NCBI GenBank assembly: GCA_001662655.1
Contig: KV460229.1
Reading direction: 5' to 3' (one strand)
Origin: Pseudogymnoascus verrucosus
Lineage: Eukaryota
Length of the DNA: 64,000 bases
Below, one piece after another: positions 2,159-30,700 of the stretch. The notes under the pieces are model-generated. The model was not told the origin of the DNA. It saw only the letters and a list, made by a program, of their open reading frames with translations, and did not search any database. Positions within the stretch are counted from its first letter, which is position 1. Every line of letters starts with the position of its first letter. The position numbers were made by a program, and so were the translations under genes.

Positions 2159-5100
2159 ATGACTAAGAAATCCTGGCTTGACAGCGTCAAGAACCGAGTT
2201 CGGTCCCGTTCATCTGCGCCTGGGCAGAATGCTCCTGTGGGGTCCTTCACAGGTGTACCGCAAGTCACAGAGCCCTCCGTCAATGCAACCCAAGCTATAG
2301 AGCCACTGGCCAATGCACTGAAATCTGAAGGGATTCGCTCCATTTCAGCCCTATCTGATCCCTATGGCATAGCTCGCGAGAAATACGGCCTGTTTCGTCT
2401 CGCAGCCCCAACTGCCAGCAGTCTCTCTGAGGATTCGAGCCTAGACACTAATCATATAGACATAGTTGCGGTCCATGGGCTAAATGGGACTGCCGACAAA
2501 ACCTGGACTGATGAAGACAACAACTTCTTTTGGCTCGAGGATCTAGTAAATGATTTCCCTGGTGCGCGGGTTTTTACGTATGGATACGCCTCCGAGGTAA
2601 AATTCACGCTCGGCACGGGAGATATCGAGGCATTCGCGAGGAGTTTATTGGAAGCTTTGAAAGCGGAGAGAGTGAGCAAGAAGGTTTGTTACACTTATAC
2701 TTGGTCTGTCGGGGTAGAGGTCACTAACGCATGGTAGGACCAGGCTCGCCGGATTATATTTATCTGCCATAGTATGGGCGGAATTGTGGTTAAAAAAGTA
2801 AGCTTGATCGTTCCTCTATAGCCTTGTACTCACAGGTAATTAGGCACTCATTATTGCTAAAAATGAGGATTTGTTGTATGATAATACAAGGAAATCAGTG
2901 GTGGGAATCGCGTTCCTCTCCACGCCGCACCGTGGCTCTTCGCAAACTGAACTCCCATTGGTTTTGGCAAACATAGCTAATGTAGTATTGTCGGGGGTGG
3001 GAAGATACGTCGGATCCATGAGGTCGGATCTCATAAAGTCTCTCGAGAAGGACTCCATGGGCCTGAAAGACATTTCTACGAATTTTAGAGACCAAACGGA
3101 GAATATGAAGATAGCATCTTTTTATGAGCTAAAGACGACGCCGCCCGTAAACAAGCTAGTAAGTTCTTGCCTCGAAGATCAATATCCTCGCTGATTCTGA
3201 CTTTCCACCTAGATTGTTGATAAAATCTCTGGGATTATGGATGTCGCTAGAGAGAGGATTATACCCATGCCTGGCTGTGATCACAGGACTATATGCCGAT
3301 TCCCTAGGAGAGATAGTAATGGTTACAAAACCGTTTTGGGAGTTCTCCGGGAGTGGGTTAGTGTTATTAATGAAGGTTGGCCTCCTTCAATCTCATTTAA
3401 CATGGAGTATGGAGTGCAATTCAGTTTGCATACGCTTACACTCACGCAGCCGAAAATGTGCCGATTTCGTCAGAAGATCTCGGTGCGTATTTCCAAATCA
3501 TAATGTATATATTAACAGTGCAGGCTAACCGACAGTAAGCTTGCCTCCGATCACTGTCCTTCCAGGAAATCAACTACCGTCGACAAGAAGCAGACCAGGC
3601 CTACCAAAATACATGTGCATGGATTCTTAAACATCCGGTTTATGCAGAATGGTTGGACAAAAAGTGTGAACTTCTCTGGATACAAGGCAGTCCCGGTTCA
3701 GGAAAGTCAACCTTGGTGTCGTTTATTTACGAGGAATTCCAGAAAAACATATCCCTGAGTAGAGAAGTGGTTCTTGATTACTTCTTCCACAGCCGGGGAT
3801 CCATATTACAAAAAACGCGTGTCGGCATGTTTCGCACTCTGTTGCATCAACTCTATGACCAAGTTCATTTTATTCGACCGAAAATACAAATGATCTTTAA
3901 AGAGAAGGACAGATTCGGCAATGCTGGGGCTGGGTGGGAGTGGCATCCTAAAGAATGTGAACGCCTCTTCTCCGAGGTCATTGTTTCTGCTGCTCAATTA
4001 AAGAACATTACTTTGTTTGTCGATGCATTAGACGAGGCTGGCTCCGATGGAATTGAGCTTGCATCATACTTTCACGAATTAAATGCGAAACTGAGGGCCG
4101 GACATTGCAACGCAAGAATCTGCATTTCGTGTCGGAAATACCCAGTTATAGCACCTAATGTCAGCTTAAAAGTCTATGTTGAGAAAGAAAACGGCGGAGA
4201 TATCCAGACATACGTGGAGCAAAAGTTTGGCTCCGAGATTCAAAGTCACGGCATGGCGATGTCAGCGCAGGGAGAGTTCAAGAAACTTCAAATGGTTGTT
4301 GTGGAGCGGTCCCAAAATACGTTCCAATGGGCAAGCCTTGTTGTTCCGCTCATAATTAAACTTCGCCGAGACGGACAATCTTTGGCTTATATTATGAAGG
4401 AACTCGATAAAGTGCCTCGAGGGTTACATGAAGTTTATGAGCATATTCTCACAAAGGCCATAGAGTTCCAATATCGGCCGAAAACTTTGCTTCTAATGCA
4501 ATGGGTCTGCCTAGCAAAGACCCCTCTCACTGTCGGAGATATACGGTTTGCTATGGCAGCAGGCTTTTGTATCGATGAGCGACAGGAATCCTCTAGCAAT
4601 TTGAAAGACTTCGTGGAGAGTGACGAGGACGTGGATACATTGATCACCAGCATGTCCGGTGGCTTGGTGGAGACCATACATCGTAAGCACGATAAATATA
4701 CAGATACAGTATCATTTTCTCCTACATCCGACATCTATAGTTCTAGAGTACAGTTCATTCATCAATCCGTCAATGATTTCCTCTTGTCGGACGGACTAAG
4801 ACTCCTCGCCCAACTTCCAAGTCCCACATCTTGGAGAGAAAACGAGCTCACATCGTCGGCAGATAGCATCATCGGCGAAAGTCATGATCGCCTATGCAAG
4901 TTGTGTATCAATTACATTAAATTTGGAAAGGTTTTCCATGCATACGAGGCTGTCTACTACAAAGGTAAGCCGTTTCCGCCATTCAAAGAGTACGCCCGAA
5001 CGTACTGGATCTTCCACGCAGAAAGAGCCGATAGCTATGAGGTTTCGCAGCAACACCTTATTCAACGCCTAGGACTTCGTCCATATCCAGTGTTCTTCGA

Positions 5101-6265
5101 TCGTATGATTTCCAATGTAATGACACAGGTATATCCACTCAACTACCCGGCCATGTCTCTATTACATATTGCGTCTCTAGCAAATCTTGCAAGTGTTGTT
5201 GCCCAAATCCTTGAAACCGATCCGTGTATGGTAAATGATCTAGATCACTTAGGCAGTAAGCCAGTGCAATACGCCGCCAGCTCCGGCCATTGCAAGTTGG
5301 TCGAGGTTCTTCTAAATGCTGAAGATCTCGTTGGGGCTAATTCTAAGGATACCGCCGGGGATATTTTTATGCACGCAGCAATGCAAGGGAACGAACAAGT
5401 CGTAAAACTACTATTGGGTCGTGGCGTAGATCTCCATAATGACACGCGAATGGCTGGCGATGCACTTATAGCAGCCGTGTGGCTCACGAGTCAAGAGGTT
5501 TTTACAACATTACCTTGGGGTGAATCCAAGAGAGTATCGACCATGGGGGATGTATCTCTTATCAAACTGTTGCTCGGTCATGGGGCTAACGCAAACGCAC
5601 GGGGTACTGGTAATCACACAGCCATTGAGGAGGCTATCGCATCGACCATTGCGCACACTAGGGCTGTTGAGCTGTTGCTGGAGAGTGGTGCAAATGCGAA
5701 TAGTAACCTATCTTTTGCGTCACCACGACGAAAACAACTCATGGAATGGCTCTCCAGTCCCCAAGTGTTGTTATCCGACAATAACTCATTAGACAAGCAT
5801 CCGGAACCAGATGGTACAGTACTACAACATGCTGCAGCGTTAAAAGATAAAAATAACGCAACAATGGTTACAAAATTGCTACTGGAGAAAGGGGCACAAG
5901 TCAACGGAGAAGGCAGCTATGGTACGGCTCTACAGATAGCCTCAGCGAGAGGAAATTTATCTGTCGTGAAGTTGCTACTCGAAAAGGGTGCAAAAGTTGA
6001 TGGCTTGTGGATAGCCTCGACGCAATGCAATGCTGTGGTCGTGGAGCTGCTTATCGAGCGCGGGGCTAATAATACCGAGTTTGGGGAAACTATAGTTGAA
6101 GTACTAAGGCGGCTGCAACTATTGAAGTCGTACTTGTACGACTCTGACACTGACTTACATTCGTTGGCGGGTTCTCTCGACACAGCATCCCCCAACGACA
6201 ACGACAACGGCAATGATGTCAACGATGATGACAACAGCAACGCTAAGGCCAATGAGGACGTCTGA
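2159..6265 (+). CDS. Fungal NLR-like protein: alpha/beta-hydrolase (SesB/PGAP1-like) + NACHT + ankyrin repeats; several 5' introns
   Basis: DIVAVHGLNG, FTYGY, CHSMGG nucleophile elbow, FLSTPHRGS; Walker A GSPGSGKST; Walker B LFVDALDE; FIHQSVNDFL; ankyrin repeats (LLLEKGAQVN, GTALQIAS); introns ~2683-2737, ~2798-2843, ~3159-3211 and within ~3376-3540. Confidence 0.9.
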
Positions 6266-6700: not shown

Positions 6701-8438
6701 ATGTCGGACAAAGCACCAAGTGGCGGCAGCCACCTGACGAGCGACATTGACTTCATTAAGACGCCCAAGGCCGCACCCGGGTCTCACGACACCGGAGAGG
6801 ATTGTGGCGTGAAAACCACCAATGTATGTTGTGTGGCCTGCTAGCTAACCTAGCTCTTTGGCGATGCCCTCAGCTAATTCAATCGTGTGCAGTCTCCAGC
6901 TATCCACAACCCTCCGCTTCCAGCAGACGGCGCCGGAAATGAGCAATTCAACAACATCATCTTCGCCAGTGTGCTCCTTGGAGTGCCCACATACCTGGCA
7001 TGGAAGGTTGGTGGTGGGCTGAAGACGACCATCTTCTTCGCCCTCATCACCTTTGTTCCCTTGCTTCTGGCATTCTGGACGGTCATGTCCACCTACAGCC
7101 CGCGGATTAACGAGAAGGTTAAGCTTCCAGGGCGTCCAGTGGAGCACTACCTCACCTTCAAGAAGGAGGCCGACCGTGCCCGGTACAGCGGCAGCAGCAA
7201 GGTACCCATGCAGACTTTCTTTGAGTTATACTTCAGCGGCGACGTTAACTTCAACGGTGACTGCCTCGACGTCATGGAGTACCGCCACGACTGGGCAACG
7301 TTCAACTTCACCTGGGACCTGTTCCGCTACATCCTCTTCACCTTCGCGCCGGATGTGATTCTGCACAACCGCTCCCAGGACGACGAGCAGGTGCGCCCCA
7401 ACTATGACCGCGGTAACGACCACTACGCCTGGTTCCTGGGACCACGCATGATCTACACCTCCGGTGTCATCTCGGACACAACCCGTGAGGAGACCCTCGA
7501 GGAGATGCAGGATAACAAGATGGCCATTGTGTGCGAGAAGATCGGCCTCAAGGAGGGCGAGACCATGCTCGACATTGGCTGCGGCTGGGGGACTCTCGCC
7601 AGGTTCGCGAGTGTTAACTACGGCGCAAAGGTCACTGGTGTCACTATCGCTCGCAACCAGACTGAGTGGGGTAACGACGCGCTCAAGCAGGCTGGTGTCC
7701 CTGAGGAGCAGAGCCGTATCCTTTGCAGCGACTACCGCGACATTGTTAGCCAAAAGTTTGACAAGATCACCCAGCTTGAGATGGCTGAGCACGTTGGTGT
7801 TCGTCGTCTCACCACCTTCTTCCGCCAATGCTACGGTATGCTTGAGGATGATGGATCTATGTACGTCCAGCTCTCTGGCCTGAGAAAGTCGTGGCAGTAC
7901 GAGGACTTTATCTGGGGCTTGTTCCTGAACAAGTACATTTTCCCCGGTGCGGATGCCTCGACTCCACTCAGCTTCTACATTGGCTGCCTTGAGAGCGCTG
8001 GTTTCGAAGTCAAGAGGTAAGCAACCCGCCCAAATAACTAGGTGACGACATGCGCTAACTCGGATGCTACAGCGTTGATACCGTTGGTGTCCACTACTCG
8101 GGTACCCTCTGGAGGTGGTACAGAAACTGGCTCGGAAACGCCGAGAAGGTCAAGGCTACCTACGGCGAGAAGTGGTTCAGAGTAAGTCACGCATGCATCC
8201 GTTCTTTTGTCGACACCGTTCTTTTGTCGACATAGAGACTAACACATCTTAGATCTGGGAGTTATTCCTGGCATACTCGACCATTGCTTCGCGCCAAGGT
8301 TCAGCCACTTGCTTCCAGATGGTTGTTGTTAAGAACCTCAACTCAAGCCACCGCATTGACGGCGTCCACTCCCAGGACGGCCTCAGCGGCGCCCTTGCCA
8401 GAAGCAAGGCAGCTGGCAAGGCTACCCTGGCGAAGTAG
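6701..8438 (+). CDS. Sphingolipid C9-methyltransferase (cyclopropane-fatty-acyl-phospholipid synthase family), 4 exons
   Basis: Two N-terminal TM segments, NYDRGND, FLGPRMIYTSG, SAM motif LDIGCGWG, EMAEHVG, YIFPGAD; introns ~6824-6892, ~8017-8071, ~8182-8252; stop TAG 8436-8438. Confidence 0.9.
8199..8232 (+). repeat. 17-bp tandem duplication (CCGTTCTTTTGTCGACA x2) in the last intron
   Basis: Read directly from the sequence. Confidence 0.9.
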
Positions 8439-8823: not shown

Positions 8824-10086
8824 CTAAAAGATATCAGTATAGTATCCCAGCGCCGGGTGCTTGTTTCCCGTAAACGTCTCCGACAGGCTATCAAGCGCAG
8901 CATGGTGCTTCGCATACTCCATCCCCCTCGCATTCTCCGCCTCCACCATCTTCCAATCCCACCCCGTCACCGCCGCCGCCTCCTTCGCCGCCTCCTTCGC
9001 AACAGCATTCGCAACACCATTAACAGCATGTCCATTCGCACTCCCATTCCCCCGCACCTCCACCTTCCCATTTGGTATCCCCAAAATCGACAACACGCTC
9101 TCCCCCATCTCCATCTCCTCCAACCCCTCCGCCTCCTCCACAACCTCCTCCTTCCTCCCATCCATCGTGTTCCACCCCCCCGGCTTCGGCGGCAACAAAT
9201 CGCACATATCCAGCACAGCCTCGGGGTGAACCGTCAACCTGCCAACTTTCATGACGTACTTGCTAATCGCGCTCGCGAAGATAGCACCCTCTGGCACATC
9301 CGGCGGCGGGGCAGCCACGCGCGCTTTCCTCGCGCGGCGCTTCGTGCGCAGGAAGCGCGGGACGAAATTCCAGTCCTTGGGATCATCGAGCGTCCAGCCC
9401 GCCGGGCGCGCGGTGCCCGCCTTCACGAAATGCGTGACGACGTATAGCCACTTCCTGTCCCAGGCCAGCATACGGGACCACATCTCGTATTTCTCATACG
9501 GTTTGATCTCGCGCTTAAAGCTGCAATGTACACCCCCCAGCATGATTCCCCATTGTCCCTTCGCGGGCTTGCCGTCTGGGCCGATGATGAGGGAGGGTTT
9601 GCGATGGAGTTCGCGGATGGCGACGTGCATGAGGGCGGCGACGAGGTGGGAGCGCGTGACGTCCAGGTCGGAGAAGTAGGTGCTGTTTGATTTGTGGAGG
9701 TTGTAGTCGCATTCTGAGGCGGGGGATTGGGAGGGGGTGATGCAGGGTTGGAAGAGGGCGGGGAGGTGGTGGGGGGTTGTGAGGCCGGAGGTGGTGGGGT
9801 CGAGGGGGGGGGCTTGCATGTGGCTTAGGATGCCATGCCAGACGCGTATCTAGATGGGGTGGGTTAGTGAGGTGCGTGGGAGAGAGGGGGGGGGTTGACG
9901 AACATGCCACACGAAGGGGAAGTTTTTGTAGTTTGCGAGCACGACGACTAGGGCGAGGATGCGGGAGTAGTTTCCTGGCCCGGTGAGGAACTTCGTGACG
10001 AATGGCCTACTCTTCCACGCGCCGACGGAGAGCGCGGCTGCCAGGACGGCGGTGATGCTTCTCAATGGGAGGCGGGAGGCTGACAT
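8824..10086 (-). CDS. Hotdog-fold thioesterase-like protein (fungal YBR096W/THEM6-like), 2 exons
   Basis: N-terminal hydrophobic LANYKNFPFVWH|IRVW; ECDYNLHKSNSTYFSDLD; FKREIKPYEKYEMWSRMLAWDRKWLYVVTHF; intron ~9850-9903. Confidence 0.8.
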
Positions 10087-10789
10087 CTTGCGCTGCGGTT
10101 GGGGCGACGCGCCGGATGACGAGGGTGATGAGCGCGCTGGCGACGGCAGTGATGAGGACATAGATCCAGAGGGGGAGATGGCGGAGAGCACAGAGGAGGG
10201 TTGTGCTGCAGATTGGCATCCGAGGGGGTTGCTGACTGTGGGGGTTGATGTGGGATTATATTGTGCGGTCATATGGATATTTTTGTGTCAGCCCAGTCGG
10301 TCGGGTACCTCGGGCTTTACGCGGTCGGAGGTTACAAGGGTGTGGGATATTCACATGCCTGGAGATTTTCCGGGGTCGCGTCGGCGCGATGGTTTCGCCG
10401 ATGCGAGAACGCGTCGTTTCTGTTGGGACAGTCTGGGATGATAAACTTACAGAAACTAAAATTCAACAGTTTATGGTTAATGGTGTTTATGATGTCTTAA
10501 TCCTAGATTAGGGGGTGGGATTGGGTGATAAAAGCCAACAAAAGATGTCGGACGAGAGGATGCAGTCCACGTGCCAACCATCGACAGGAAGATATCTCGA
10601 ACTAGCTCGAGATCTGACATATTCTTTGACCTCCTATGGCAAATAGGATTTGTGTATAGTTTCTAGCTCTCATCTGTTCCCATCTCACCGCCTCCACATC
10701 TCCAGTAAAGGACGTACGTATACTCCAAAACACATCCCACGTTCTCCTCTTCAACCGATGCCAATCTCACATGAGCAACCCCCAACAGC

Positions 10790-13172
10790 TCACGCCGCGC
10801 GCCGAGCAGTCGTGCTCATCAACGTAATCTTCTTCCCCTTCTTTTTCTTTCCTCCTCCTCCTCCCCCTCCCCCATTCCCAGCCTTAGGCGCGCCCCCACT
10901 CCCCTCACCAACCTCATCCGCCAAGCTCGCCGCCTCAACCTGCCGTATCATCGCCTCATTCTCCTCACGCAGCTCCTTCTCCCAGTCCTGGAGCCATCCA
11001 TCATTGCCGCTCTCCTCATGTACCACTTCGTTTCCATCCGTAGGTGCTAACACCGTAGTTCCCCAAACCGTACGCTTCTGTGGCGGGCTCGTTCCCGGAG
11101 AATGATTCGCCAAACTCTCGAATCCCGGGCGGTGGTGCGTCGCATACGGCGGACTATTCCCAGCAGTTCCGTCCGCATTCGCCTGGTTGACAAGCGGGAG
11201 GAAATCCGCGGCGCCGAACCGCTCCTCCGCAACGGGAGTGGAGAATTCCTGGCGCTTCTTTCGGACGTTTGCCCAGCGCTCTTCGTCCTCGAGCTTCTCG
11301 GCTCGGACACGCGCTTTCTCCTCCCGGTTCTCCTTTTCGCGGTTCTTCTCGCGGCGACGCGAGATATCCTGGGCGAAGTTGGCGAGGACAGAGTCGGGGA
11401 CTACGTCGGTCCAGTTGCATTCCAGGAAGGAGACTTCGCAGCCATACGGGAGATGGGCGAGGTATTTTGTGCGTTTGCGTAGTTCGTCGTCGATGATGTG
11501 GCCCGTAGAGACGTGCTCCACGCGGGGGAGGAGGGTTGATGGGAAGGATGAGAAATTGCCAAAGGCAGCTTTAAGTATGCGAATATCGAGGGGTGCAAGA
11601 TAGTAATGCTGGAGTCCCTGGTAGAAGTAATATGGTGCATGAGGCTGTGCTGGCAAATTGTGGGCTGGACCGCTGTGAGCTGGAGCGTTGTGGGCTGGAG
11701 CCTCGTGAACCGTATTGTTGTGTGCGACTGTAGACTCGTTCAAAGAAAGGTGATTGAAAGCATCGGCTACGGGGTTCAGGCGATGTTGGCCGGTACTATT
11801 TGATGGTTTTGATGGAGCTTCCGTCGGTCCTTCCTCGGAAGGCGTAGCGACGGGAGCAGCTTCGCCATCATGAAGTTGGACCCATGTCGTTGCCGATTTC
11901 TCATCATCGGTTTTGGGTTCCTGAGCCTGCTGGATCTCGTGCTCCTTTGCATGCCTCGCTGGCTGCTTCAATATAGCCGGGGCATTCCCCATACCCTTAA
12001 TGTGCTCTTTTGCCTCGATCACGCTCCGAACAGCCTTCTTAGCCCAAGTTGTTTCATCGCCAAACATCAGCTCATCTTCCTTCTCTTGCCGTTTCAAGTC
12101 CTCGATCTCCTTATCAAATTGCTCAGTCATATATTCCTCCGTGCCTTTCATAACACGGGAGTAATCTGTGACTTCAGCTGCAAAGTACCACGGGATATCG
12201 TGAAGTCTCCCCATGGATTCTGCCTCGTCCCTTGGCAGGGTCAAGGTGCTACCCGGTTGACGCATAACCAATCGAAGGATGACATCCTCTCCTTCCTTCG
12301 GCGCCGGGTTTTCCTGACCAGTAAACCACCTTACTGGTCTAGTATCAGACATATATATTGAGTCCCAACAGAGAGGGCATTTCTTCCATCTTGTCTTTTT
12401 CTCAGGAGCTTCATCGTCGGTAGAATGCATATATCGAATCAGACATGGTAAACAGAATATATGGCCACATTTCGCCATCCGAGGCGCTACAGGATGTGAT
12501 AGACATATCGGACAGGACGAAAGTTGGGACTCTGCAGACACGAGGATCTGCAGGACGCTGTCCCAGTCGAGAGGTGCATCAGCGTCGACAGCTTGTGCGC
12601 GGTAGTCACCGGAAGGGTGGACGATAAAGCGGTAGTTGGCATGGATATATCTGCGCCTACAGTCAGCTTTTTGTATGATACCGGCAACAGCAGGTTGCAT
12701 ACCTCGCTTTGTCGGAAGCATGATAGCCAGATCCTAACCCCGACCTTGTGTATCCAGAATCCCTACCACTAGACCTCGGATACACCTGTGCACTTGGTCG
12801 AGGTGGTAAGGCAAAGTTCATCAGATGCGTGATGGAGGTCTGGCCTCGTCGGCTGGTTGAGTTCCTCATTGCAGTCTGCGTCCGTTAGCTGGGCCCTTCT
12901 GCCCATTCCATTGTGCAACTCACATTTTCAGCATAAGAATCATCCCCAAGCAGTCCCCCAGGTCGTCTATGCTTTTTGTGGTTCTTCTTCGAGGACTGGT
13001 TGTTCCGAGCAGTACCGTGGGTCGTATTCGAATGGGCACTGCTGGAGCGTCTGGTGCTGGATTCGAAGCTGGGTGATGACGGGCCCTGCTGTTGCTGCTG
13101 GGGGGTGGGTGTCTGTGCGGAGGAATGATTGAGTTTTCCTCCAAGTGACGCTCCAGGTTGCGTGGAATTCAT
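10790..13172 (-). CDS. MAG2: RING-finger E3 ubiquitin ligase, RNF10/Mag2 family, 3 exons
   Basis: SITHLMNF, YIHANYRF, C3HC4 RING CPICL...KCGHIFCLPC...CPLC, YYFYQ...LDIRILK, ELRKRTKYLAHLP...FLEC, basic C-terminal KKKKGKKITLMST. Confidence 0.85.
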
Positions 13173-14335
13173 TCTCGTTGCAGGTGCATAGGAGCAGACA
13201 GGCACAGTTTCTCTTGGACGTGGGTGTGTTTGTCTTGAACAGAAGTCTCCAGCGGAAGGGCAGTGAGGCACAGCTTGTCTCTAGCAGAAGATCCAGCTTA
13301 TCTTGAGCGGCAGTTGCTTTATGCAGCCGTGATATTGACTTGGGAAGCAGAGAGTAAATCGTAGTTATCGGAGGAAGAGAGTGGCGGCCTCCAATCTCAA
13401 CACGACCCTTGGTGATCTGGAACCTGCGCTACCCGGTGGACGCAGGTTTATTTGAGTAAATGAAGCTACAGTGTCCGTCTCTGTCGTGCTCAGCCCTGTC
13501 CCTTCCGTGACCCCTCAGTCCCTATTTCCCTCTTTTGTTTGTGTTTTGTTGATATGGACAGGACCCCAGAGGGCGCTGGTTGTTTTGTCGAGTCACCGTC
13601 AGCGGGGCAGATGTCGGGACGGCGAGCAATCCGACGCCTGTTTATCGCCAGTGAGCAGCAGGTGATCTGTGTGCAACAAACGGAAAAAAAATAAATCCAG
13701 TAAAATTCAGACAAATTTAGTTTAATTGCTACATAAATTCTAATTTATCTACAGCATCAGCACAAACAATCATGCTATATTCAATCTTCATAAATTTATT
13801 ATGGACTGTAGCCATTCACTTTCTTCCCGTCCCCGTGACTTCCAGCCACTGATTCGTACAATCGATGACGGCGTTGGGTATAAATGATCTTGCTTAGTCA
13901 TGCTAATTTGCTTAGTCATCTCAGGCTAGAGAAGTGCAGAGAGCAGCCCAGCCCTTCTACGGTGACCGAATCAGCCAATAATGCACAAATCATAGAGTGC
14001 CAGTACAGGATACCATTGATTCGGGCTGAACTAAGAAATAATCCCCAGCTTCACGTCGACGACAACTTCATCTCCTAACTATCGCCAACCAACACGCCGA
14101 CACTGTGGAGACTGTCAACATTCCTTGCTGTCCTCCTTTGTTTAAATATTATCTGCGCTGTCATTCCACAGCAGGATAATTCACGGCTGAATCGCTGCCT
14201 GTTCTACAAAGTTCCCACCACCAAAACCCACTTCGATCTTCTAGTCGCGCCTATTGCTTGCGCGCCTGGAAATCTACAAACATCCAGGCCGCCTCGACAT
14301 TCCGAGACGGTTTGGAAGACTTCCCCCACGCCGGC

Positions 14336-17195
14336 ATGATGAACAGCCGTCATCTGCCGGCAGGGCAGGGGATGCATCATGACAACAGACGCCGACAATA
14401 CAACCAGCACGGCCAGCACAACCAGCAGCATTACCCACAACATCAACAGCCGCCACAGCAAATGTATAATGCATACTACAATCAACCATACTATCCACAA
14501 CAGCCTCCGCCTCCCCAGTACTACAACACCGGCATGCCTCCGAACCAGTACAACCCATATGCAGTATATCGAGGGTCGCCGTCCATGCCGTACCAGCAAT
14601 ACCAGGTCCCACCTGTCGTGTCGACCCCCTCATATCCACACCCCCTTCAGCCGCCTGCGGTAGTCACAACACCATACCAACCTCATGTGCCGACAACACC
14701 TTCATCTACGCGTTCTTCATATATAGCTCCTGCGACAATCCCAGCTCCAGCCGTGCCTCCGCCAGTGGCTGAAGTTGTCGTCCCTGCTCAACTACCTCCA
14801 ACTTTTATTCCGCAACTCAGCGCACCTCTGACTCCACCTCCACCTGTTCAAGAAGCTCCTCAGTTCCCCGCAGAAATACCAGACGAGGAAGTATCTGAGA
14901 CTCGGATCCCATACTGGCCACAAGTAAGTAACCCGTATCTGACTCACAAAGACACGTTCTGACTTTACTAGCTCCCTTGGTACTCTAGACCCGACTTGTC
15001 ATGGCCAGCGAGGTCAACGAAACAAAAGAAACGGAAGGCAGTGCCCAAGCAATCGACGTTGGTCGAGCAAAAGGATGTCCAACAACCCGGCCAAGGTGAC
15101 TCGATGGTCTCAAACACCGTTGACGCTACTGAAGCTTCCGTGCCTCGCCCCGAGACTCCATCCACAACACAAGCTCCCTCCGAACACGCTCCATCGACAA
15201 ATCCCACAACTCCATCTTCTGCCCAGGCAACTCTACAACCTGCGGTCAGCTCTGCAAAATCTGCTCATCGCAGCGTGCCTCCTCCAATTATGCCTGCACT
15301 CCCAAGAGTTCTGGCCAAACAATCACCAATTTCTGCGGAGGCTAAGTCGGATTCGCCCAAGGGGCCATCCCAAGATAAGAAGCCCGAGTCTGAGGTAGTT
15401 GCCAATGGACCAGATGCTGAAGCGCCGCAAGCGGAGGCTGAGGCTGCCACGGCTGAGCCAACTCCAGCACCTTCAGGGCCGAAATCCTGGGCCAACCTTT
15501 TCAAGGGTCCTACCCAAGCTGCACGCCTTGATACTGGCGTGTCAGGTTCTTCTACGACTGCTGCAGGTTTTGCGAAGTCGAACAACGAGTCGTTGGCTGA
15601 TGCCCTCGTTTCTTTCAATGCCAATATTCACAGCGGCAAAATCTCTTTCCTCGAGCCGAGAGGCCTTGTTAATACCGGCAATATGTGTTATATGAACTCT
15701 GTAAGTCTTGACTACTATACACAAATGATCCACCTCTAATGACTCCCAGGTACTTCAAGTTTTAGTCTTCTGTGTACCTTTTTACGAGCTTCTTGATCAA
15801 GTTGGCAAAAGGGCGGCGCATAGTTTTAAAAGCGATACCCCATTAATCGACGCTATGTAAGGTTCCATTCCCGCACGCATTGAACAGCTCCTAACATTTC
15901 ACAGGATTATGTTCATGCGCGAATTCCCTATTATCGATTCGGCTGTGTCTGTGGAGAAGCTTAGAATGAGGTTGAAAGATAATGAGTTGGAAAAGTATGG
16001 GGATGCATTTACACCGGATTTTGTTTATGAGGTTATCAGGACCTTGCCGCGATTTGCATCAATGAGGGTATGTCCACTTTTCCATGAATGTGTACTTCCC
16101 CGACTAACTCTGTTACAGCGCGGGCATCAGCAGGACGCAGAGGAGTTTTTGGGGTTTTTGCTTGAAGGTCTTCACGATGAGTGCGTACAGGTTATGCAGT
16201 CTACCAGTTCCATCGATGGGTCACCAAACGTGCCTTCATCGCCCGCTGTGAGCCAGGCTGGGTCAGTTTCTGGAGAAGGCGCAAACGGATGGCTCGAGGT
16301 TGGTCCGAAGCAAAAGGCTGCCATCACCAGATCCTCCGGTACAAGACTTGACTCGCCAATTACAAAGATATTCGGCGGCACCCTTCGCTCGGTGCTCCGT
16401 GTTCCTGGTCTTAAGGACTCTGTCACGATGGAGCCATACCAACCCCTCCAGCTCGACATCCACCTCCCATCCGTGCACAACATCATCGACGCCCTGAAAG
16501 GTCTAACGAAGCCAGAGACCATAACCGGAGACTTCAAGTCCCCCCGCGGCTCCAACGTCACGGCCACAAAACAACTCTCGATCGAAACGCTCCCGCCAAT
16601 GCTCATCCTGCACCTCAAGCGCTTCCAGTATGACAACAGCGGCGGCACGCAGAAGATCTGGAAGAAGGTTGGCTACCCCCTCGAGCTCGAGATCCCCAAG
16701 GAGGTTTTTGCGCGCCAGAAGCAGGGTGGTATCCTCAACCACGGTGGTCTGCCCCGTTACCGCTTGACGGCCGTTGTGTACCACCATGGCAAGAACGCGA
16801 GCGGTGGCCACTATACGGTGGATGTGCGGCGCCAGGACGGGCGCGAGTGGGTTCGTCTCGACGATACGGTGATCCGTCGCGTCAAGTCGGAGGATGTGGC
16901 TGAGGGTGGCAGCGAGGAGGACCCCAAGGTCCTGGCTGCGGCTCTGGAGGCGCACAACCGGGACACGATCCCTACCGCTAACATCTTTGCGGGGATGAAG
17001 ATGGATGATGAGGATGGAGAGGCGAGCGAGTGGAAGCAGGTTAATGGGGAGAAGGTGAACGGGGCGGGGAAGAAGTGGGCGAGTGTTGCGAATGGGGTTG
17101 CGGCTGCGCCGGCGGGGAAGAAGGCCGCGGCGGAGAAGTTTGGGATTAAGGATAATAAGGTGGCGTATCTGTTGTTCTACCAGAGGATCGAATGA
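14336..17195 (+). CDS. UBP3: Ubiquitin carboxyl-terminal hydrolase, Ubp3/USP10 family, 5 exons
   Basis: Q/P-rich N-terminus, PKSWANLF motif, Cys box PRGLVNTGNMCYMNS, QQDAEEFL, WLEVG, SPITKIFGG, His box YHHGKNASGGHY, AYLLFY. Confidence 0.9.
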
Positions 17196-18732
17196 GGGGG
17201 GACGATTTAGGTGAGCGAGCAGGCGCAGTGGTTTGGGAGAGGATTTGGGTGTGAGAGGGGGGGGATGCGACCAGGAGTGGATGCGATCAGGAGAGGATGT
17301 GAGGATTTAGCGGATGCGAGGATTTGGATGTACTGTAAGCGGGGGCAGCGAGAGGAGCCTCGTTTGGGCTGGGAGAGGTGGAGTGGTGCAGGTGGGGGAG
17401 AGGAGGCGAAGTCGCGCATGTGTGGTGGTTGTTGGGCGGCTTCAATGTATACTACTATACTGGTGTGTTTAGTCGTGTCGAAAGTGTTCGGCATAATCGA
17501 AGATCAAGCGCCCGCGCGAATATTACCAGATCTATGCTCATCGAGCAATGTGATAATGTTAAGACGGGTGGGTATATAGGTCTGAACTAATTATGAGGGA
17601 ATCACGTACATGGGTGCAGAATGAGAAGTTCTTGGCATCATTCTACGTGAATTTCAAAACCACCATATTGCTGGACTCGTATGCAGCATCCCTATCTCAG
17701 CTCGAAGGGTTCCTTGACATCTACAATCATCGTGAATACTCATACAACATGGGTCTCCCATTCGTAACCTCCAACTTCAAGAACACTACCGCCCCGCACT
17801 CCGCCAAGTAATCACATAGCTCTAGTTCTTCGAGCTAACAGCTGTCGTCCTGCTCGCCATCAGTTTTGCGTTTCTTCTACTCGCGGGTTTTGGGAGGGAA
17901 GCGGTCTCGGATGGGGTGGGTGAGTATGTGGATGGCGATGCGGAGGATGAGGGGTGGAGGATGAGGGGGGTGTGGGTGCTGGTGGTGGTTATGCGGGTGT
18001 TCTAGTGGCTTGTGGGGGGAGGGGAGAAGGCTGACTTTGGAGTAATGGTTTTGGGATGTGTGGATGCGTGTGTGGAGAAGAGGGGGGAAAGGTTTAAGGG
18101 GTAGCGACTGTTCTCGAAGGAGGTGGGGATGGGATGAGGGAGTCTCTGAGTGCCTAATACAATTATGCGGCTACCGCTCATCATGGGCATACGCAACCAG
18201 CAAGGCACAGTACAGTTCGAACATTAAAGCCCCTCCATTCCCACGTCCCCTTCTCTATCCTACTATCCCCACTAATTCCCTCATAAACCAACCCCCCTTT
18301 AATCACGCAAAAACCACGATAAAACTGGAGATAATCCAAAAATAAAAAATAAAAAACAAAAACAGTATACCCGCATAGACACAGGACACAAAACCCAAGA
18401 CCCATCAAGGCTTCCCAAGCAGGCCACATCATTCATATACACATTCCACCCCCCAAAACCTGACTCCGAAACGCCCCGCGCCAGCCCGGCCCCCTACGGA
18501 ATAAAGTAGGTTATGTGTAGTTAGTTGGTTGAGATATAGGTAGATGAACAGGGCAGGGGAGGGCGCGGTACCGCGACACAGCCGCAACGAAGAGAAAAAC
18601 AGTAGAAAAGCAGCGGAAATTCAAATAGAGGCGCATAAGCAGAACAAGAGTATTTTCATCAATAGACCTTCAAAGAGGACTCCCCGGCGCGAAACAAATA
18701 AACAGGCAGACAGGCGGAAAGCAGACAGGTGT

Positions 18733-27769: not shown

Positions 27770-30700
27770 CTACCTCCATGTTTGAAACATCTCCTCAACG
27801 CCTGCAACATACTCCACCTTGTCTGTGTAGAGTAGCAATGTAGCGACCGCCGTATGCCCCCAATCCTTACCTCCCCTCTCTGACGACTGGTCTACAGCCC
27901 ACCACAGCGGTGACAGGCCCTCCTTATCCTTTTTGTCAGCCTCAACCTCGCCTGTGTCGAGTAGTAACTTAATAATAGCCGCATGTCCGTTCCTAGCAGC
28001 ATATGACAACGGCGACCGGCCATCATGATCTGCTAAGTCGGCCTCAACTTTGTCGGTTTCAAGCAGTAGCCTAGTGACAGCCACATGGCCCCCTCTAGCA
28101 GCCCATGATAACGGCGACCGGCCATCATAATCTACTAAGTCGGCCTCAACTTTGTCGGTTTCAAGCAGTAGCCTAGTAACAGCCACATGCCCCCCTCCAG
28201 CAGCCCACGAAAGCGGTGACCGGCCGTTCTCGTCCCTTAAGTTAGCGTCAACCTTGCCCGTGTTAAGCAGTAAACTAGTAACAGCCTCATGCCCGCCCTT
28301 AGAAGCTAACGACAGAGGTGATTGGCGAAGTAAATTATCCCTTAAATCAGCTTCAACATCGCCTGTGTTGAGTAGTAGCCTAGTGACATCCTCATGTCCA
28401 TTATTAGCAGCCCACGATAGCGGAGACCGGCCAGATATATCCCTTAAGTCAGCCTTAGCCTTGCCTATATCAAGTAGCAGCCTAGCAACTGCTTCATGTC
28501 CACCTCTAGCAGCCCACGATAGCGGAGGCCGGCCAGCCATATCTCTCAGGTCAACCTCAGCCTTGCCTATACTAAGTAACAGCCTAGCAACTGCCTCATG
28601 CCCCTTCTCAGCAGCCCACGACAGTGGTGTCCGGCTGTACTCATCCCTTAAGTCGGCCTCAACCTTGCCTGTGTCAAGCAGCAGCCTGACAGTGGCCTCC
28701 TTCCCGCACTCAGCAGCCCATGACAATGGCGACTTGCCATTCATGTCCTGGATATTGAGGTTGGCCTTTTGTTCATGTAATAATTCCACAGCCCCTTCAT
28801 GTCCCTCGATGGCGGCGCGGAGCAACCAAGCGTCACGTAATATTGGCGCGTCCGCCACCTCGATTGTCAATTGGCGTAACACGTTAGGATAGCTTGCAGC
28901 TGGTTCCTTCCCAGAGCTAATCCTGAACATATCAAATAAGGCAGGACTACTCGCTATTGCATGGTCCTCCCACTTTGTCGTTGCGTATTGGAGCAATGGG
29001 TACTCTAGGAAGTGTTCGTGCAAATCCTGATGCTTTTTTTCGATAAGACATCTGAACCCATGACGACTTTCATAAGAGGCAAACCAGTTGCGATCATTAA
29101 AAGTTTTTGAAGTCAGGTAGTTCCAACACACCTGGAAAAGGACGAGGTTTGCGCGGTCTCGGGAGGTATGATACCATGCGTCCTGTAACCCATCGTGATT
29201 GTCCAATAGGAAATCTTTCACGGATTGGTGGCAGAAGTTAATTGTTGCATAGTTATCGTTACCCTTAACACCCAGGTAGATGATGGAACTACATGACAAA
29301 CATATGTCCGTATATTCGTCCCCATGCCGACGTGACAGCACTCTGCCATCTTTCCATACGGCAAAGGCACTTGCTATTTCGTGCTTTTTGAGTGGGCTCT
29401 GGGCAGCAACCATACTAAGTAGAAGAAATTGGACGTCTTCGCGTGCCTCGTTAGAAACATTTTTGATCAAAATTTGGGTATATGTTTCGTTGAGCCCCTT
29501 AGGAAGCTGTTTTAGTTTGTCTTTCACGTTATACCTGTGTTCCTTCTCGAGGTCAGCAACCATGAGTGATACCCATAAAAAGGTGCCTTCCGCTTCGTTC
29601 TTCAGGGCGTTCTCTACCATTTGTTTTAGCTCTGGTGTGTACCCCTTCCGTTTAGCAAGTCGATCAACTTCAGAATCAATATACATGGACAGATCATAGT
29701 TGACGCTAGTAGAGTTCATTAACAGACGGGTGCCCACACCACGCAGCTCCTCCATAATATCATTCTCAGGCCGTGATGTAACGAGGAACTTAAACTTCCC
29801 CGTTTGTGTTGTCAGTGACGTCTGCAAGAGCTCTCTTATACAGGAGAGCAATCCCTTGCGCAAGGATCCATCACATTCGTCGAGAGCGTCAATCAGAATG
29901 AACACTTCGCCAGCCCGTTCATCCTGAAGCATGCCCTTAAGAATTCTCGCGAGAGTGGAGAAATTCCCGGCGATGGTGTTTCCCTGAGCATTAAAGTCTG
30001 GTTTAATAATGTCGAATAGCTCATTTCTCTGGAGCAGGATCTGCCAAATAAGGCTTCGAAGTATAGCTATTGGCGTCTTCCGGTCCTGATCTTTATCATC
30101 GCAGAAAAAGTAGGCTAATGCTTTGCTAGGGGCCCTCTCAACCTTTTTCTGCAGCTCATCAACAAGAAAGGTCGACATCATCGTCTTTCCAATTCCAGGA
30201 GAGCCAGTGATGCAGAATAGCTGAGGATTTTCAGATGCTCCCCATGCGGAGAATTCCTTTCGTCTGAGAATCCATTCGCAAGTGTTCCCTACCCTTTCAC
30301 CCTTTTGGTGCTTAATGTCTGACAGGACATCTTGGGCATTCATCACTCCCATTCCCTGCAGGAATTCCCGGAGCTGTTTTGTTGTAGTGATTTGCTCGTC
30401 TGTAATAGCCACTGGAATAGCCACTGGAATAGCCCTCGGGGTTCGGCGCCGCCTAAGCATCTCTTCCGCATTTGCTGCCATTCGAACTATCTCTGGGTAG
30501 ACCTGCCGGAAAGAAGGATCGTCTGGGCCGTAGAATTTGTTGATCTTGAAGTGATCTGTGTTTAGAGATATCTTCTGATGGCCGTCAATACAGGCACTAG
30601 TCTCATTTACAACCTAGAAATGTTAGTTGAGGTAGTGGAAATGGTCATCTGAATACGAACCACTTCTTTGAACATAGACTTCACAATGAATCTCAAAGGC

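Follow-up and report, generated by a model that had tools for sequence, protein, structure and literature searches.

In human and yeast cells, RNF10/Mag2 and USP10/Ubp3 respectively write and erase regulatory ubiquitin on the 40S ribosomal proteins uS3 and uS5, as described in PMC10878831. This antagonism, worked out by biochemistry from 2020-2021 onwards, has been tied to 40S decay (PMC10878831; also PMC12008924 and PMC11604940), and a role in starvation-induced 40S decay is reported for RNF10 (PMC12008924). In these systems, human RNF10 with USP10(-G3BP1) and yeast Mag2 with Ubp3(-Bre5), the relationship is biochemical, and we found no mention of genomic linkage in these accounts, unlike the locus described here, where the two genes lie head-to-head. 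The enzymes of this locus are assigned to the same two families by their domains and by the annotation of their relatives.

A second point of reference is the set of conserved divergent gene pairs of fungi, which includes RAD16/RAD7, the ribosomal protein genes S16/L13, and RPABC2/TFIIIA (Davila Lopez et al. 2010, PMC2871058). According to that study, highly conserved divergent pairs are enriched for functional relationships, and many of the pairs it lists as common to Pezizomycotina and Taphrinomycotina are without an evident functional link. The pair analyzed here resembles those described there in having a short spacer between head-to-head genes, in being kept across Pezizomycotina classes and linked in Taphrinomycotina, and in the functional relation of its products; it differs in that the products described there are two subunits or steps of one pathway, whereas here they are antagonists. 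The RNF10-UBP3 pair is a newly found instance of this familiar type, in which two genes with linked functions have been kept side by side in divergent orientation.

Gene models and family assignment

The analyzed window (the whole stretch of 64,000 nucleotides) comes from a Pseudogymnoascus species and carries two genes that diverge from one another, with their 5' ends facing: on the minus strand a RING E3 gene of RNF10/Mag2 type, and on the plus strand a deubiquitinase gene of Ubp3/USP10 type. The start codons, at 13172 (-) and 14336 (+), are separated by a spacer of 1,163 bp (13173-14335), and the outer ends of the locus, 10790 and 17195, are the final bases of the two stop codons. No ATG-started open reading frame lying wholly within the spacer reaches 80 aa, the longest being one of 64 aa, and neither a tRNA nor an Rfam family at gathering score was found there. 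The original prediction, which placed these two ATGs about 1.16 kb apart with no gene between them, was accurate on both counts.

The RNF10-like model has three exons (13172-12924, 12875-12703 and 12650-10790) and codes for 760 aa; the UBP3-like model has five (14336-14923, 14972-15700, 15750-15856, 15905-16067 and 16119-17195) and codes for 887 aa. All six introns are matched exactly by contig joints in runs X1-X3, which derive from a close relative; although not recorded as RNA, the runs are shown to be RNA by the spliced joints in their contigs. Both transcripts were found in the same runs. On the minus strand, exon 1, which begins at the start codon, was placed by its open reading frame and by frame analysis, and exon 2 by frame analysis, with the flanking introns (12651-12702 and 12876-12923) skipped in spliced contigs. 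The 5' edge of exon 3 is set by a joint between 12650 and 12703 in X1 and X3, and the exon runs from the third base of codon 141 to the stop. On the plus strand, introns 14924-14971 and 15701-15749 are skipped in X1 contigs, and exons 3 and 4, placed by frame analysis around intron 15857-15904, are flanked by X1 joints of 15856 to 15905 and 16066/7 to 16118/9. The spliced RNF10-like model is colinear with protein P0001 (760 aa), to which it is identical in 749 of 760 residues, and the UBP3-like model shows 92% identity to P0122 from end to end.

Exon 3 of the RNF10-like gene carries the RING and conserved C-terminal blocks. PF00097 and related RING models match its product at aa 70-122, and in the full protein the C3HC4 finger (PF00097, E 7.6e-07), with all eight zinc ligands present, occupies aa 187-238 (12359-12514, minus strand). 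The Cys and His ligand columns are invariant in 15/15 aligned homologues, and further invariant blocks are found ahead of the RING (Y-x-x-A-N-Y-R-F), mid-protein and at the C-terminus. The protein has 2,029 homologues at E<=1e-5, the nearest of which are named "RING-finger protein Mag2/Rnf10", "RING finger protein P8B7.23" and "ring-15" in their sources. A sequence search of the PDB retrieved generic RING matches alone, with no RNF10 or other close relative among them. Membership in the single-copy family that the sources name Mag2/Rnf10 is supported at the level of annotation.

The UBP3-like protein begins with 430 low-complexity residues, including the Q/P/Y-rich product of exon 1. Its Cys box, GNMCYMNS (aa 432-439; catalytic Cys codon 15686-15688), is found at the end of exon 2, and exon 5 encodes most of the USP catalytic domain (UCH, PF00443, E 2e-34), the His box GGHYT at aa 759 (His codon 16809-16811) and the stop. 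This fits the layout of Ubp3/USP10 enzymes, in which a long disordered N-terminus precedes a C-terminal USP domain. In those enzymes the N-terminus also has a motif for cofactor binding (to Bre5 or to the NTF2-like domain of G3BP). There are 761 longer homologues at E<=1e-5, and names that refer to USP10 or UBP3 are frequent among them, for example "mRNA-binding ubiquitin-specific protease UBP3" in Aspergillus clavatus, "ubiquitin carboxyl-terminal hydrolase 10" in several species, and "hydrolase 3". The PDB held no close relative: solved USP domains (USP15, 2, 8, 7, 12 and others) match weakly, at E of about 1e-18 or worse, and exon 2 as a query brought up neither a Ubp3-Bre5 nor a USP10-G3BP peptide entry, only one chance match at E 0.44. 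The nearest full-length relatives are annotated as Ubp3/USP10 and as no other USP subfamily, which again supports the assignment at the annotation level.

The C3HC4 finger, the USP Cys and His boxes and the names of the relatives thus bear out the identities originally proposed for both genes, with orthology judged from source annotations and domain architecture; the proposed E3/deubiquitinase antagonism on ribosomal ubiquitin is likewise found in print (PMC10878831).

Conservation of the linkage across Ascomycota

Head-to-head genes are common in compact fungal genomes, and the above-chance feature of this pair is its conservation, not its orientation by itself. We surveyed 80 metagenome loci, the best 80 of 236 matches and all from Pezizomycotina, which were grouped into 56 RNF10-bearing lineages. 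UBP3 is head-to-head with RNF10 in 28 of these, absent despite sufficient flank in 7, and the remaining 21 are uninformative; the pair is therefore present in 28 of the 35 informative groups drawn from these best matches, groups which are not phylogenetically independent. With classes assigned from best named matches, the pair spans Leotio-, Eurotio-, Lecanoro- and Dothideomycetes. The locus tags of the two genes are consecutive in Candelaria pacifica, Sclerotinia borealis, Diplocarpon mali and Chaenotheca gracillima, and two apart in a Mollisiaceae species; two further classes are represented among these.

Among 28 representatives, UBP3 recurs near RNF10 in 23, as against 14 for the next most frequent neighbor, an ERG4/ERG24 sterol reductase gene, 8 for a dienelactone hydrolase gene, and fewer for other families. 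The adjacency is hence better kept than that of neighboring gene pairs, as the original prediction called for. Part of this conservation is plain block synteny, since the sterol reductase gene, unrelated in function, has been kept fairly well too. In 11 representatives this gene is next to RNF10 and in three Helotiales-like ones next to UBP3, the pattern expected from inversion of an intact pair, and it looks as if the pair was inverted as one unit and survived. The pair dates back to the common ancestor of Leotio-, Eurotio-, Lecanoro- and Dothideomycetes or earlier, and has outlived the rearrangement of its flanks, with few breaks.

Breaks did occur. The pair was split at least three times (in a Sordariales-like, a Dothideomycete and a Cladosporium-like lineage), and in Myriangium duriaei and Bogoriella megaspora each gene has a contig of its own. 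In Saccharomyces cerevisiae UBP3 is YER151C and MAG2 adjoins YLR426W, which places the two on different chromosomes, unlinked. These repeated splits, together with the state in S. cerevisiae, mean that the arrangement is dispensable.

In Schizosaccharomyces pombe the gene order is SPBP8B7.21 (ubp3), an ER retention receptor gene, SPBP8B7.23 and atg8, so that ubp3 and the RING gene are two positions apart. The RING gene is co-directional with the receptor gene and convergent with atg8; the names SPBP8B7.21 and SPBP8B7.23 both lack the "c" suffix, which by the naming convention presumably puts them on the same strand. The same two families are therefore linked there as here, the Pezizomycotina homologues even carrying the P8B7.23 name, but on one strand and with one intervening gene rather than head-to-head. 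It follows that the neighborhood probably predates Pezizomycotina, and that any benefit of linkage in S. pombe does not come from a shared promoter.

The original prediction knew of no description of this linkage. Our literature search also found none, and the pair is absent, for the terms tried, from Table 1, the main text and supplementary file 4 of PMC2871058.

Transcription starts and conserved elements in the spacer

The spacer (13173-14335) would have to hold both 5' UTRs and both promoters. The RNF10 mRNA reaches 13224 in a spliced X2 contig, and 13174-13412 is covered by a contig of X1, giving the RNF10 5' UTR a minimum length of 52 nt and probably one of 240 nt or more. This would leave no more than ~0.92 kb between the two transcription starts, an estimate taken from contigs, which cannot show a start. 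Bidirectional pairs are usually defined, in PMC2648788 and PMC2670823, by starts within 1 kb of each other.

The only spacer element conserved across classes is a composite of two boxes, GCCCC[T/G]C and TGACTC, located here at 13590-13608 on the minus strand, 418-436 nt upstream of the RNF10 ATG. In 10 of 22 pair spacers the boxes are separated by 45 nt at most, as compared with 3 of 205 background windows of 1,200 bp and with a mean of 0.38 of 22 (maximum 3) in 300 Markov resamples. In loci that allowed the RNF10 ATG to be placed, the element is ~300-430 nt away from this ATG, but anywhere between 324 and 1,178 nt away from UBP3. It is kept upstream of RNF10 in three of the seven loci lacking UBP3, and a fourth has a less strict copy.

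On the other side of the spacer, a leader directly upstream of UBP3 (14276-14335, plus strand) aligns in the closest loci only, and is non-coding because its indels are not multiples of three. RNAalifold predicts 10 base pairs in it, 2 of them with compensatory changes; a hairpin at 14308-14333, ending just before the AUG, is the minimum free energy structure in 5/5 sequences, with weak z-scores (-0.7 to -1.6). The rest of the spacer, with an A+T-rich middle at about 13680-13800, fails to align even within Leotiomycetes. The RNF10 promoter element and the UBP3 leader hairpin are, on this comparative evidence, candidates.

Explanations for the persistence of the pair

The reading that we favor, and hold to be somewhat better than an even bet, is that this is an ancient divergent writer/eraser pair with two back-to-back promoters, held together by its tight spacer and by a loose coupling of dosage. 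The spacer would then comprise the RNF10 element (13590-13608) and the UBP3 leader (14276-14335) on either side of the non-conserved A+T-rich middle, and, being short and packed with the control sequences of both genes, would offer few harmless breakpoints. A common chromatin neighborhood might in addition loosely couple the dosage of writer and eraser, which could be useful without being essential.

It is possible, if doubtful, that the conservation is neutral: two neighbors from an old block would have been kept by the breakpoint-poor spacer with its two promoters, with no regulatory coupling and with the biochemistry coincidental. The retention of the unrelated sterol reductase gene in half of the representatives (14/28), the repeated splitting of the pair and the separate conserved proximal element of each gene are all as expected under such neutrality, as are the many pairs without evident functional link listed in PMC2871058. 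On the other hand, the enrichment for functional relationships among highly conserved divergent pairs, reported in the same study, speaks against it. Opposite action on the same ribosomal lysines would also be a very specific relation for chance neighbors, and the pair outlives every flank, has apparently been inverted as a unit, and is linked in S. pombe too.

A stronger version of the functional reading is that linkage was itself selected rather than kept by inertia, as an Ascomycota-old means of fixing the ratio of 40S ubiquitin writer to eraser, such that 40S turnover is set by the state of the substrate and not by noise in the enzymes; we consider this rather unlikely. It would lead one to expect compensating trans-regulation, or a looser RNF10:UBP3 ratio, in the lineages that split the pair (Sordariomycetes, some Dothideomycetes and budding yeast). 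The TGACTC core resembles a Gcn4/CpcA-type site, and might put the locus under amino-acid-starvation control. Such control would fit the role in starvation-induced 40S decay reported for RNF10 (PMC12008924).

The original prediction suggested that, on a shared bidirectional promoter, the two genes could be a co-regulated ribosome quality-control module; put strictly, one promoter would drive both through the same cis elements, in strict co-expression. The head-to-head orientation with ATGs 1,163 bp apart, starts probably less than about 0.9 kb apart and so inside the usual 1-kb definition (PMC2648788, PMC2670823), and the presence of both transcripts in the same runs are compatible with this. 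Nevertheless, this part of the prediction was not supported, and we regard it as improbable. The one cross-class element keeps its distance to RNF10 and not to UBP3, and remains with RNF10 once UBP3 is gone; UBP3 has a conserved leader of its own, beyond which the spacer is unalignable even within Leotiomycetes; several lineages have split the pair; and the S. pombe genes are co-directional with a gene between them. With the two-box element fixed to RNF10 and a separate leader at UBP3, cis elements serving both genes were not found in the spacer.

That one or both genes are paralogues from other RING or USP families, which would make the writer-eraser pairing illusory, is highly improbable: Pfam recognizes only the generic RING and UCH domains, but hundreds of full-length homologues at E<1e-199 are named Mag2/Rnf10/P8B7.23 and USP10/UBP3, the solved USP2/7/8/12/15 families match only weakly (as above), and the UBP3-like layout is that of Ubp3/USP10.

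Genomic context is seldom informative on function in eukaryotes. Here, gene linkage ties the two enzymes together independently of biochemistry, in an association that goes back hundreds of millions of years among fungi. Should the linkage prove to be under selection, the dosage balance of E3 and deubiquitinase would be a conserved control parameter of ribosome turnover, and lineages with and without linkage would be ready-made natural experiments; if it is not, the locus would be a clean case of a short two-promoter spacer keeping two genes together while their surroundings were extensively rearranged. In practical terms the gain is modest in either case, and consists of two verified gene models, a candidate promoter element of RNF10 and a candidate hairpin in the UBP3 leader.

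Structure and expression of the divergent genes

RNF10, the minus-strand gene for a RING E3 of the RNF10/Mag2 type, and UBP3, the plus-strand gene for a deubiquitinase of the Ubp3/USP10 type, lie next to each other in the window. The main RNF10 ORF occupies 10790-12721 (-), with an upstream exon carrying the start ATG at 13172, and UBP3 is made up of several plus-strand ORFs running from the ATG at 14336 to the stop at 17195 (+). Analysis of splice sites and reading frames resolved the minus-strand gene into three exons and the plus-strand gene into five, giving spliced products of 760 aa (RNF10-like) and 887 aa (UBP3-like). The first is colinear with the database homologue P0001 (760 aa, Pseudogymnoascus sp. 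VKM F-4519) and matches it at 749 of 760 residues, and the second shows 92% identity end to end with P0122, a homologue from another Pseudogymnoascus strain. The head-to-head arrangement that had originally been predicted is borne out by these models: the two frames diverge, and the 1,163-bp spacer between the ATGs (13173-14335) contains no Rfam family, tRNA or notable ORF.

Contigs of four sequencing runs were aligned to 10300-17700; three of these runs (X1-X3) come from a close relative and have no RNA label on record. The X1-X3 contigs skip exactly all six predicted introns, two in RNF10 (12651-12702 and 12876-12923, -) and four in UBP3 (14924-14971, 15701-15749, 15857-15904 and 16068-16118, +). 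X1-X3 thus represent RNA, the two gene models are confirmed, and RNF10 and UBP3 were both transcribed in those samples. The X1-X3 contigs leave ~13760-14500 uncovered, which has no bearing on transcription there. In a single X1 contig of low depth, 12874 is joined to 12924 through one additional letter, where the main joint is 12875|12924; this variant reflects either minor use of an alternative acceptor or donor, or an assembly error.

Conservation and loss of the adjacency

A metagenome scan that used an alignment of 15 RNF10 homologues as the query, with 10-kb flanks taken, returned 390 stretches matching the pattern, of which 236 encode a relative. The best 80 of these 236 loci, all from Pezizomycotina, were kept, and UBP3 was looked for in all 80 using 120 full-length UBP3 proteins. 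Among the 56 groups formed by these best 80 loci (at least 95% nucleotide identity; the groups are not independent lineages), 28 carry UBP3 on the opposite strand, upstream of RNF10, 7 are missing UBP3 despite at least 2.5 kb of upstream sequence (at least 4 kb in 6 of them), and 21 have a flank too short to judge. UBP3 was not found at any other position within reach in the 80 loci.

With classes assigned by best-matching named proteins and not by trees, the loci that carry the pair come from, among others, Leotiomycetes (such as L002, at 97% to a Cadophora UBP3), Eurotiomycetes (L017, 91% to Thermoascus, and the Penicillium-like L028 and L043), Lecanoromycetes (L022, L023, L027 and L077) and Dothideomycetes of the Pleosporales type (L031, L041, L046 and L056). 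In named genomes, the two genes have consecutive locus tags in Candelaria pacifica (M1812_005256/005257), Chaenotheca gracillima (M4579_002364/002365), Sclerotinia borealis (SBOR_5542/5543) and Diplocarpon mali (JHW43_006900/006901), and tags two apart in a Mollisiaceae species. They are also found on equal-sized contigs in Cadophora (78 kb), Lasallia (184 kb), Amylocarpus (245 kb), Elsinoe fawcettii (307 kb) and Pycnora (463 kb).

The 7 groups without UBP3 represent three lineages, as classified by their best named hits: Sordariomycetes (L071, L076 and probably L080; for L076, identity is 83% with a Cercophora protein and 82% with one from Podospora named 'RING-15'), Cladosporium-like loci (81%; L073/L074 and L078), and another Dothideomycete lineage (L025 and L036). 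In the latter a dienelactone hydrolase gene lies directly upstream of RNF10 (8536-10259 in L036, 2494-3887 in L025), and in several Dothideomycete-like loci that carry the pair (L037, L041, L046 and L059) the dienelactone hydrolase gene adjoins the far side of UBP3. UBP3 alone therefore seems to have been lifted out of the L036/L025-type locus, leaving the upstream element of RNF10 (described below) in place. In Myriangium duriaei and Bogoriella megaspora, RNF10 and UBP3 lie on separate contigs. Judged from this distribution, the head-to-head adjacency is ancient and unusually stable, and was lost repeatedly but rarely.

The S. pombe genome has about 5,000 genes, and the names SPBP8B7.21 and P8B7.23 lack the 'c' suffix, which, by the naming convention, we take to mean that the two genes are on the same strand. 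SPBP8B7.21 is ubp3, given as the homologue or orthologue of YER151C (UBP3) in a table of PMC3032702, and P8B7.23 is the Swiss-Prot protein whose name sources apply to Pezizomycotina RNF10 homologues. According to the PMC2871058 supplement, P8B7.23 is co-directional with the gene for an ER lumen protein retaining receptor and convergent with atg8. The SPBP8B7 numbering thus points to the order ubp3, receptor gene, RING gene, a linkage as in Pezizomycotina, yet not head to head. Two given genes within two positions of each other are unlikely to have arisen by chance in a genome of this size, and the linkage is probably older than the split between Taphrinomycotina and Pezizomycotina. In S. cerevisiae, unlike in Pezizomycotina, MAG2 and UBP3 are unlinked, UBP3 being YER151C (PMC3032702) and MAG2 adjoining YLR426W (PMC2871058 supplement).

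Neighbouring genes served as a control, examined in 28 representatives (the window and 27 loci, most groups that had usable flanks contributing one); all stop-to-stop ORFs of at least 90 aa were clustered, ignoring antisense and out-of-frame ORFs that overlap RNF10 or UBP3. RNF10 is present in 28/28 by design, and UBP3 recurred in 23/28, as compared to 14/28 for the next family, ERG4/ERG24 sterol reductases (identified from Pfam), and 8/28 for the dienelactone hydrolase, with all other real flanking families in fewer representatives than this; the fractions are rough, as flank lengths vary among loci. The expectation that the adjacency would be better conserved than neighbouring gene pairs thus held, and the pair is, on these counts, the most stable feature of the region.

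The ERG4/ERG24-family gene recurs at L017 12503-14920, L039 12209-14081, L002 2916-4775 and in 11 more representatives; it is not in the window. It directly follows the 3' side of RNF10 in 11 of these loci, which are Eurotio-, Lecanoro- and in some cases Dothideomycete-like, and the 3' side of UBP3 in the 3 that are Helotiales-like. An inversion of the whole RNF10-UBP3 unit, with breakpoints outside it, would produce such a pattern. The ERG4/ERG24-family gene ranks third in the neighbourhood, being less constant than the two others, and the pair is thus part of a block of modest conservation to which an unrelated gene also belongs. A purely neutral retention of the pair would accommodate such a block and sits less easily with the lead of UBP3 over all other flanking families; we regard it as possible, on the doubtful side.

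In the window, the two housekeeping genes are surrounded by variable, accessory-type genes. Two genes that each combine NACHT/NPHP3_N with ankyrin repeats (fungal NLR-like; 3539-6262, + and 27770-30613, -) flank the region on both sides, and its other neighbours are a P450 (20511-22293, -), a CMAS-type methyltransferase (6878-8017, +), a 4HBT thioesterase-like gene (8824-10272, -) and a 2OG-Fe(II) oxygenase (86-814, -). Only the thioesterase-like gene was confidently refound in the 80 loci (in L006, the closest relative, where it is rearranged), with the P450 giving one marginal match in L056 (26% identity, 33 bits); the NACHT-ankyrin genes were not queried.

Elements within the spacer

Where the scan matched RNF10 from residue 1-3 (many RNF10 references are truncated predictions) and the UBP3 start could be placed, the ATG-to-ATG distance was ~0.6-1.5 kb, for example 636 bp in L049, 933 in L008, 946 in L005, 1,031 in L006 and 1,525 in L002, next to 1,163 bp in the window. 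In 22 spacers (the window and 21 loci with a placed UBP3 start), a k-mer survey retrieved GAGGGGC/GCCCCTC and GAGTCAC/GTGACTC as over-represented words. A composite element, consisting of a GCCCC[T/G]C box and a TGACTC box at most 45 nt apart, appeared in 10/22 spacers, a count inflated by relatedness since 8 of the 10 are from Leotiomycetes. It was found in 3/205 background windows of 1,200 bp from the same loci, and 300 first-order Markov resamples contained it in 0.38 of 22 on average (at most 3). The composite also occurs in two Penicillium-like loci and one Lecanoromycete, and in the window its two-box match is at 13590-13608. The TGACTC core resembles what we take to be a Gcn4/CpcA site, and the C-rich box presumably resembles a stress-response element.

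The distance from the composite to the RNF10 ATG is steady at ~300-430 nt, whereas the one to the UBP3 ATG varies between 324 and 1,178 nt. Upstream of RNF10 in the 7 UBP3-less loci examined, both boxes are present at most 60 nt apart in L076, L036 and L025 and 66 nt apart in L080, the first box stands alone in L071 and L078, and neither box appears in the upstream stretch examined in L073. The enriched words were considered as a shared-promoter element and rejected, because the composite is present upstream of RNF10 in UBP3-less loci; it is therefore RNF10's own upstream element. The original prediction had suggested one shared bidirectional promoter for both genes, and this part of it is not supported, as the conserved composite keeps its distance to RNF10 and stays with RNF10 where UBP3 is gone. 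A true single shared promoter, to which the divergent starts and the compact spacer would lend themselves, is thus improbable.

On the UBP3 side, the last 60 nt of the spacer (14276-14335), up to the start codon, show conservation among the window, L006 and L008, and since the indels in this leader are not multiples of three, the UBP3-proximal stretch is non-coding. Within Leotiomycetes, no spacer alignment was found beyond this stretch. A predicted 10-bp hairpin (14308-14333 in the window), ending a few bases before the AUG, is common to eight Leotiomycete leaders just upstream of the UBP3 start codons (the window, L006, L008, L005, L002, L010, L075 and L049). The hairpin is the minimum-energy fold in 5/5 sequences, with unremarkable z-scores (-0.7 to -1.6) and a compensatory change in 2/10 pairs; with such weak z-scores and slight covariation, it might be a translational control element.

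Each gene has a separate conserved proximal element. The spacer may be viewed as two back-to-back promoters, and the persistence of the pair might be explained partly by the fact that nearly any breakpoint in ~1 kb holding two sets of control sequences would damage one of the genes, and partly by a common chromatin neighbourhood that would loosely couple the amounts of enzymes opposed on the same lysines. This mixed reading, of two promoters held together by breakpoint constraint and loose chromatin coupling, is the one towards which we lean.

Probable identity of the two enzymes and opposing activities of their families

The RNF10-like product contains a C3HC4 RING finger with a full set of zinc ligands, invariant in 15/15 aligned homologues, and long conserved blocks beyond the RING. 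A protein search gave 2,029 matches at E<=1e-5 among 8,000 scored candidates, with source names among the best 120 including 'RING finger protein P8B7.23', 'ring-15' and 'related to human transcription regulator Staf-5', and a further search retrieved the name 'putative RING-finger protein Mag2/Rnf10'. In the UBP3-like product, ~430 low-complexity residues precede a USP catalytic domain (PF00443, E 2e-34) that contains both a Cys box and a His box, and sources list its relatives as 'ubiquitin carboxyl-terminal hydrolase 10', 'hydrolase 3' and 'mRNA-binding ubiquitin-specific protease UBP3'. Sequence searches of the PDB returned no USP10/Ubp3 catalytic domain, Ubp3-Bre5 peptide or RNF10 entry and are uninformative for orthology. 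Based on the source annotations, both proteins are very likely orthologues of RNF10/Mag2 and Ubp3/USP10, and mistaken orthology, which the names Mag2/Rnf10 and UBP3 speak against, is very improbable.

The antagonism between RNF10/Mag2 and USP10/Ubp3, which the original prediction called established, is indeed in print. According to PMC10878831, Mag2 is needed for uS3 ubiquitination in 18S non-functional rRNA decay, uS3 and uS5 are the ubiquitination targets of RNF10, their ubiquitination is higher upon USP10 knockout, constitutive marking by RNF10 results in 40S degradation, and yeast Ubp3 deubiquitinates eS7. Ubp3 was also named as the deubiquitinase balancing Rps3 mono-ubiquitination in the title of a 2017 paper cited in PMC12700985.

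The genomic linkage of RNF10 with USP10, or of Mag2 with Ubp3, is not described in the papers listed by the literature searches, part of them judged from title and abstract; these deal with ribosomal ubiquitin or with unrelated subjects, and the one combining RNF10, USP10 and synteny concerns human small ORFs. Conserved divergent pairs in fungi, with RAD16/RAD7 among many, have short spacers and are enriched in functional links (PMC2871058), and the RNF10-UBP3 pair fits this class of conserved divergent pairs of functionally related genes. The pair does not appear in the main text of that paper, and the accessible text of its supplementary file 4, which is possibly incomplete, contains no UCH/zf-C3HC4 pair in divergent orientation. 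Through its genomic context, the pair lends support to an enzyme antagonism that was discovered recently, and natural experiments are at hand; it leaves the understanding of the pathway unchanged.

The extreme C-terminus of the RNF10-like protein (window 10790-10850) is composed of a Gly run, then a Lys-rich stretch and then a short final motif. This tail is near-invariant in 15 aligned Pezizomycotina homologues, with the preceding 100 residues variable, and, being basic, it could touch rRNA or the 40S subunit.
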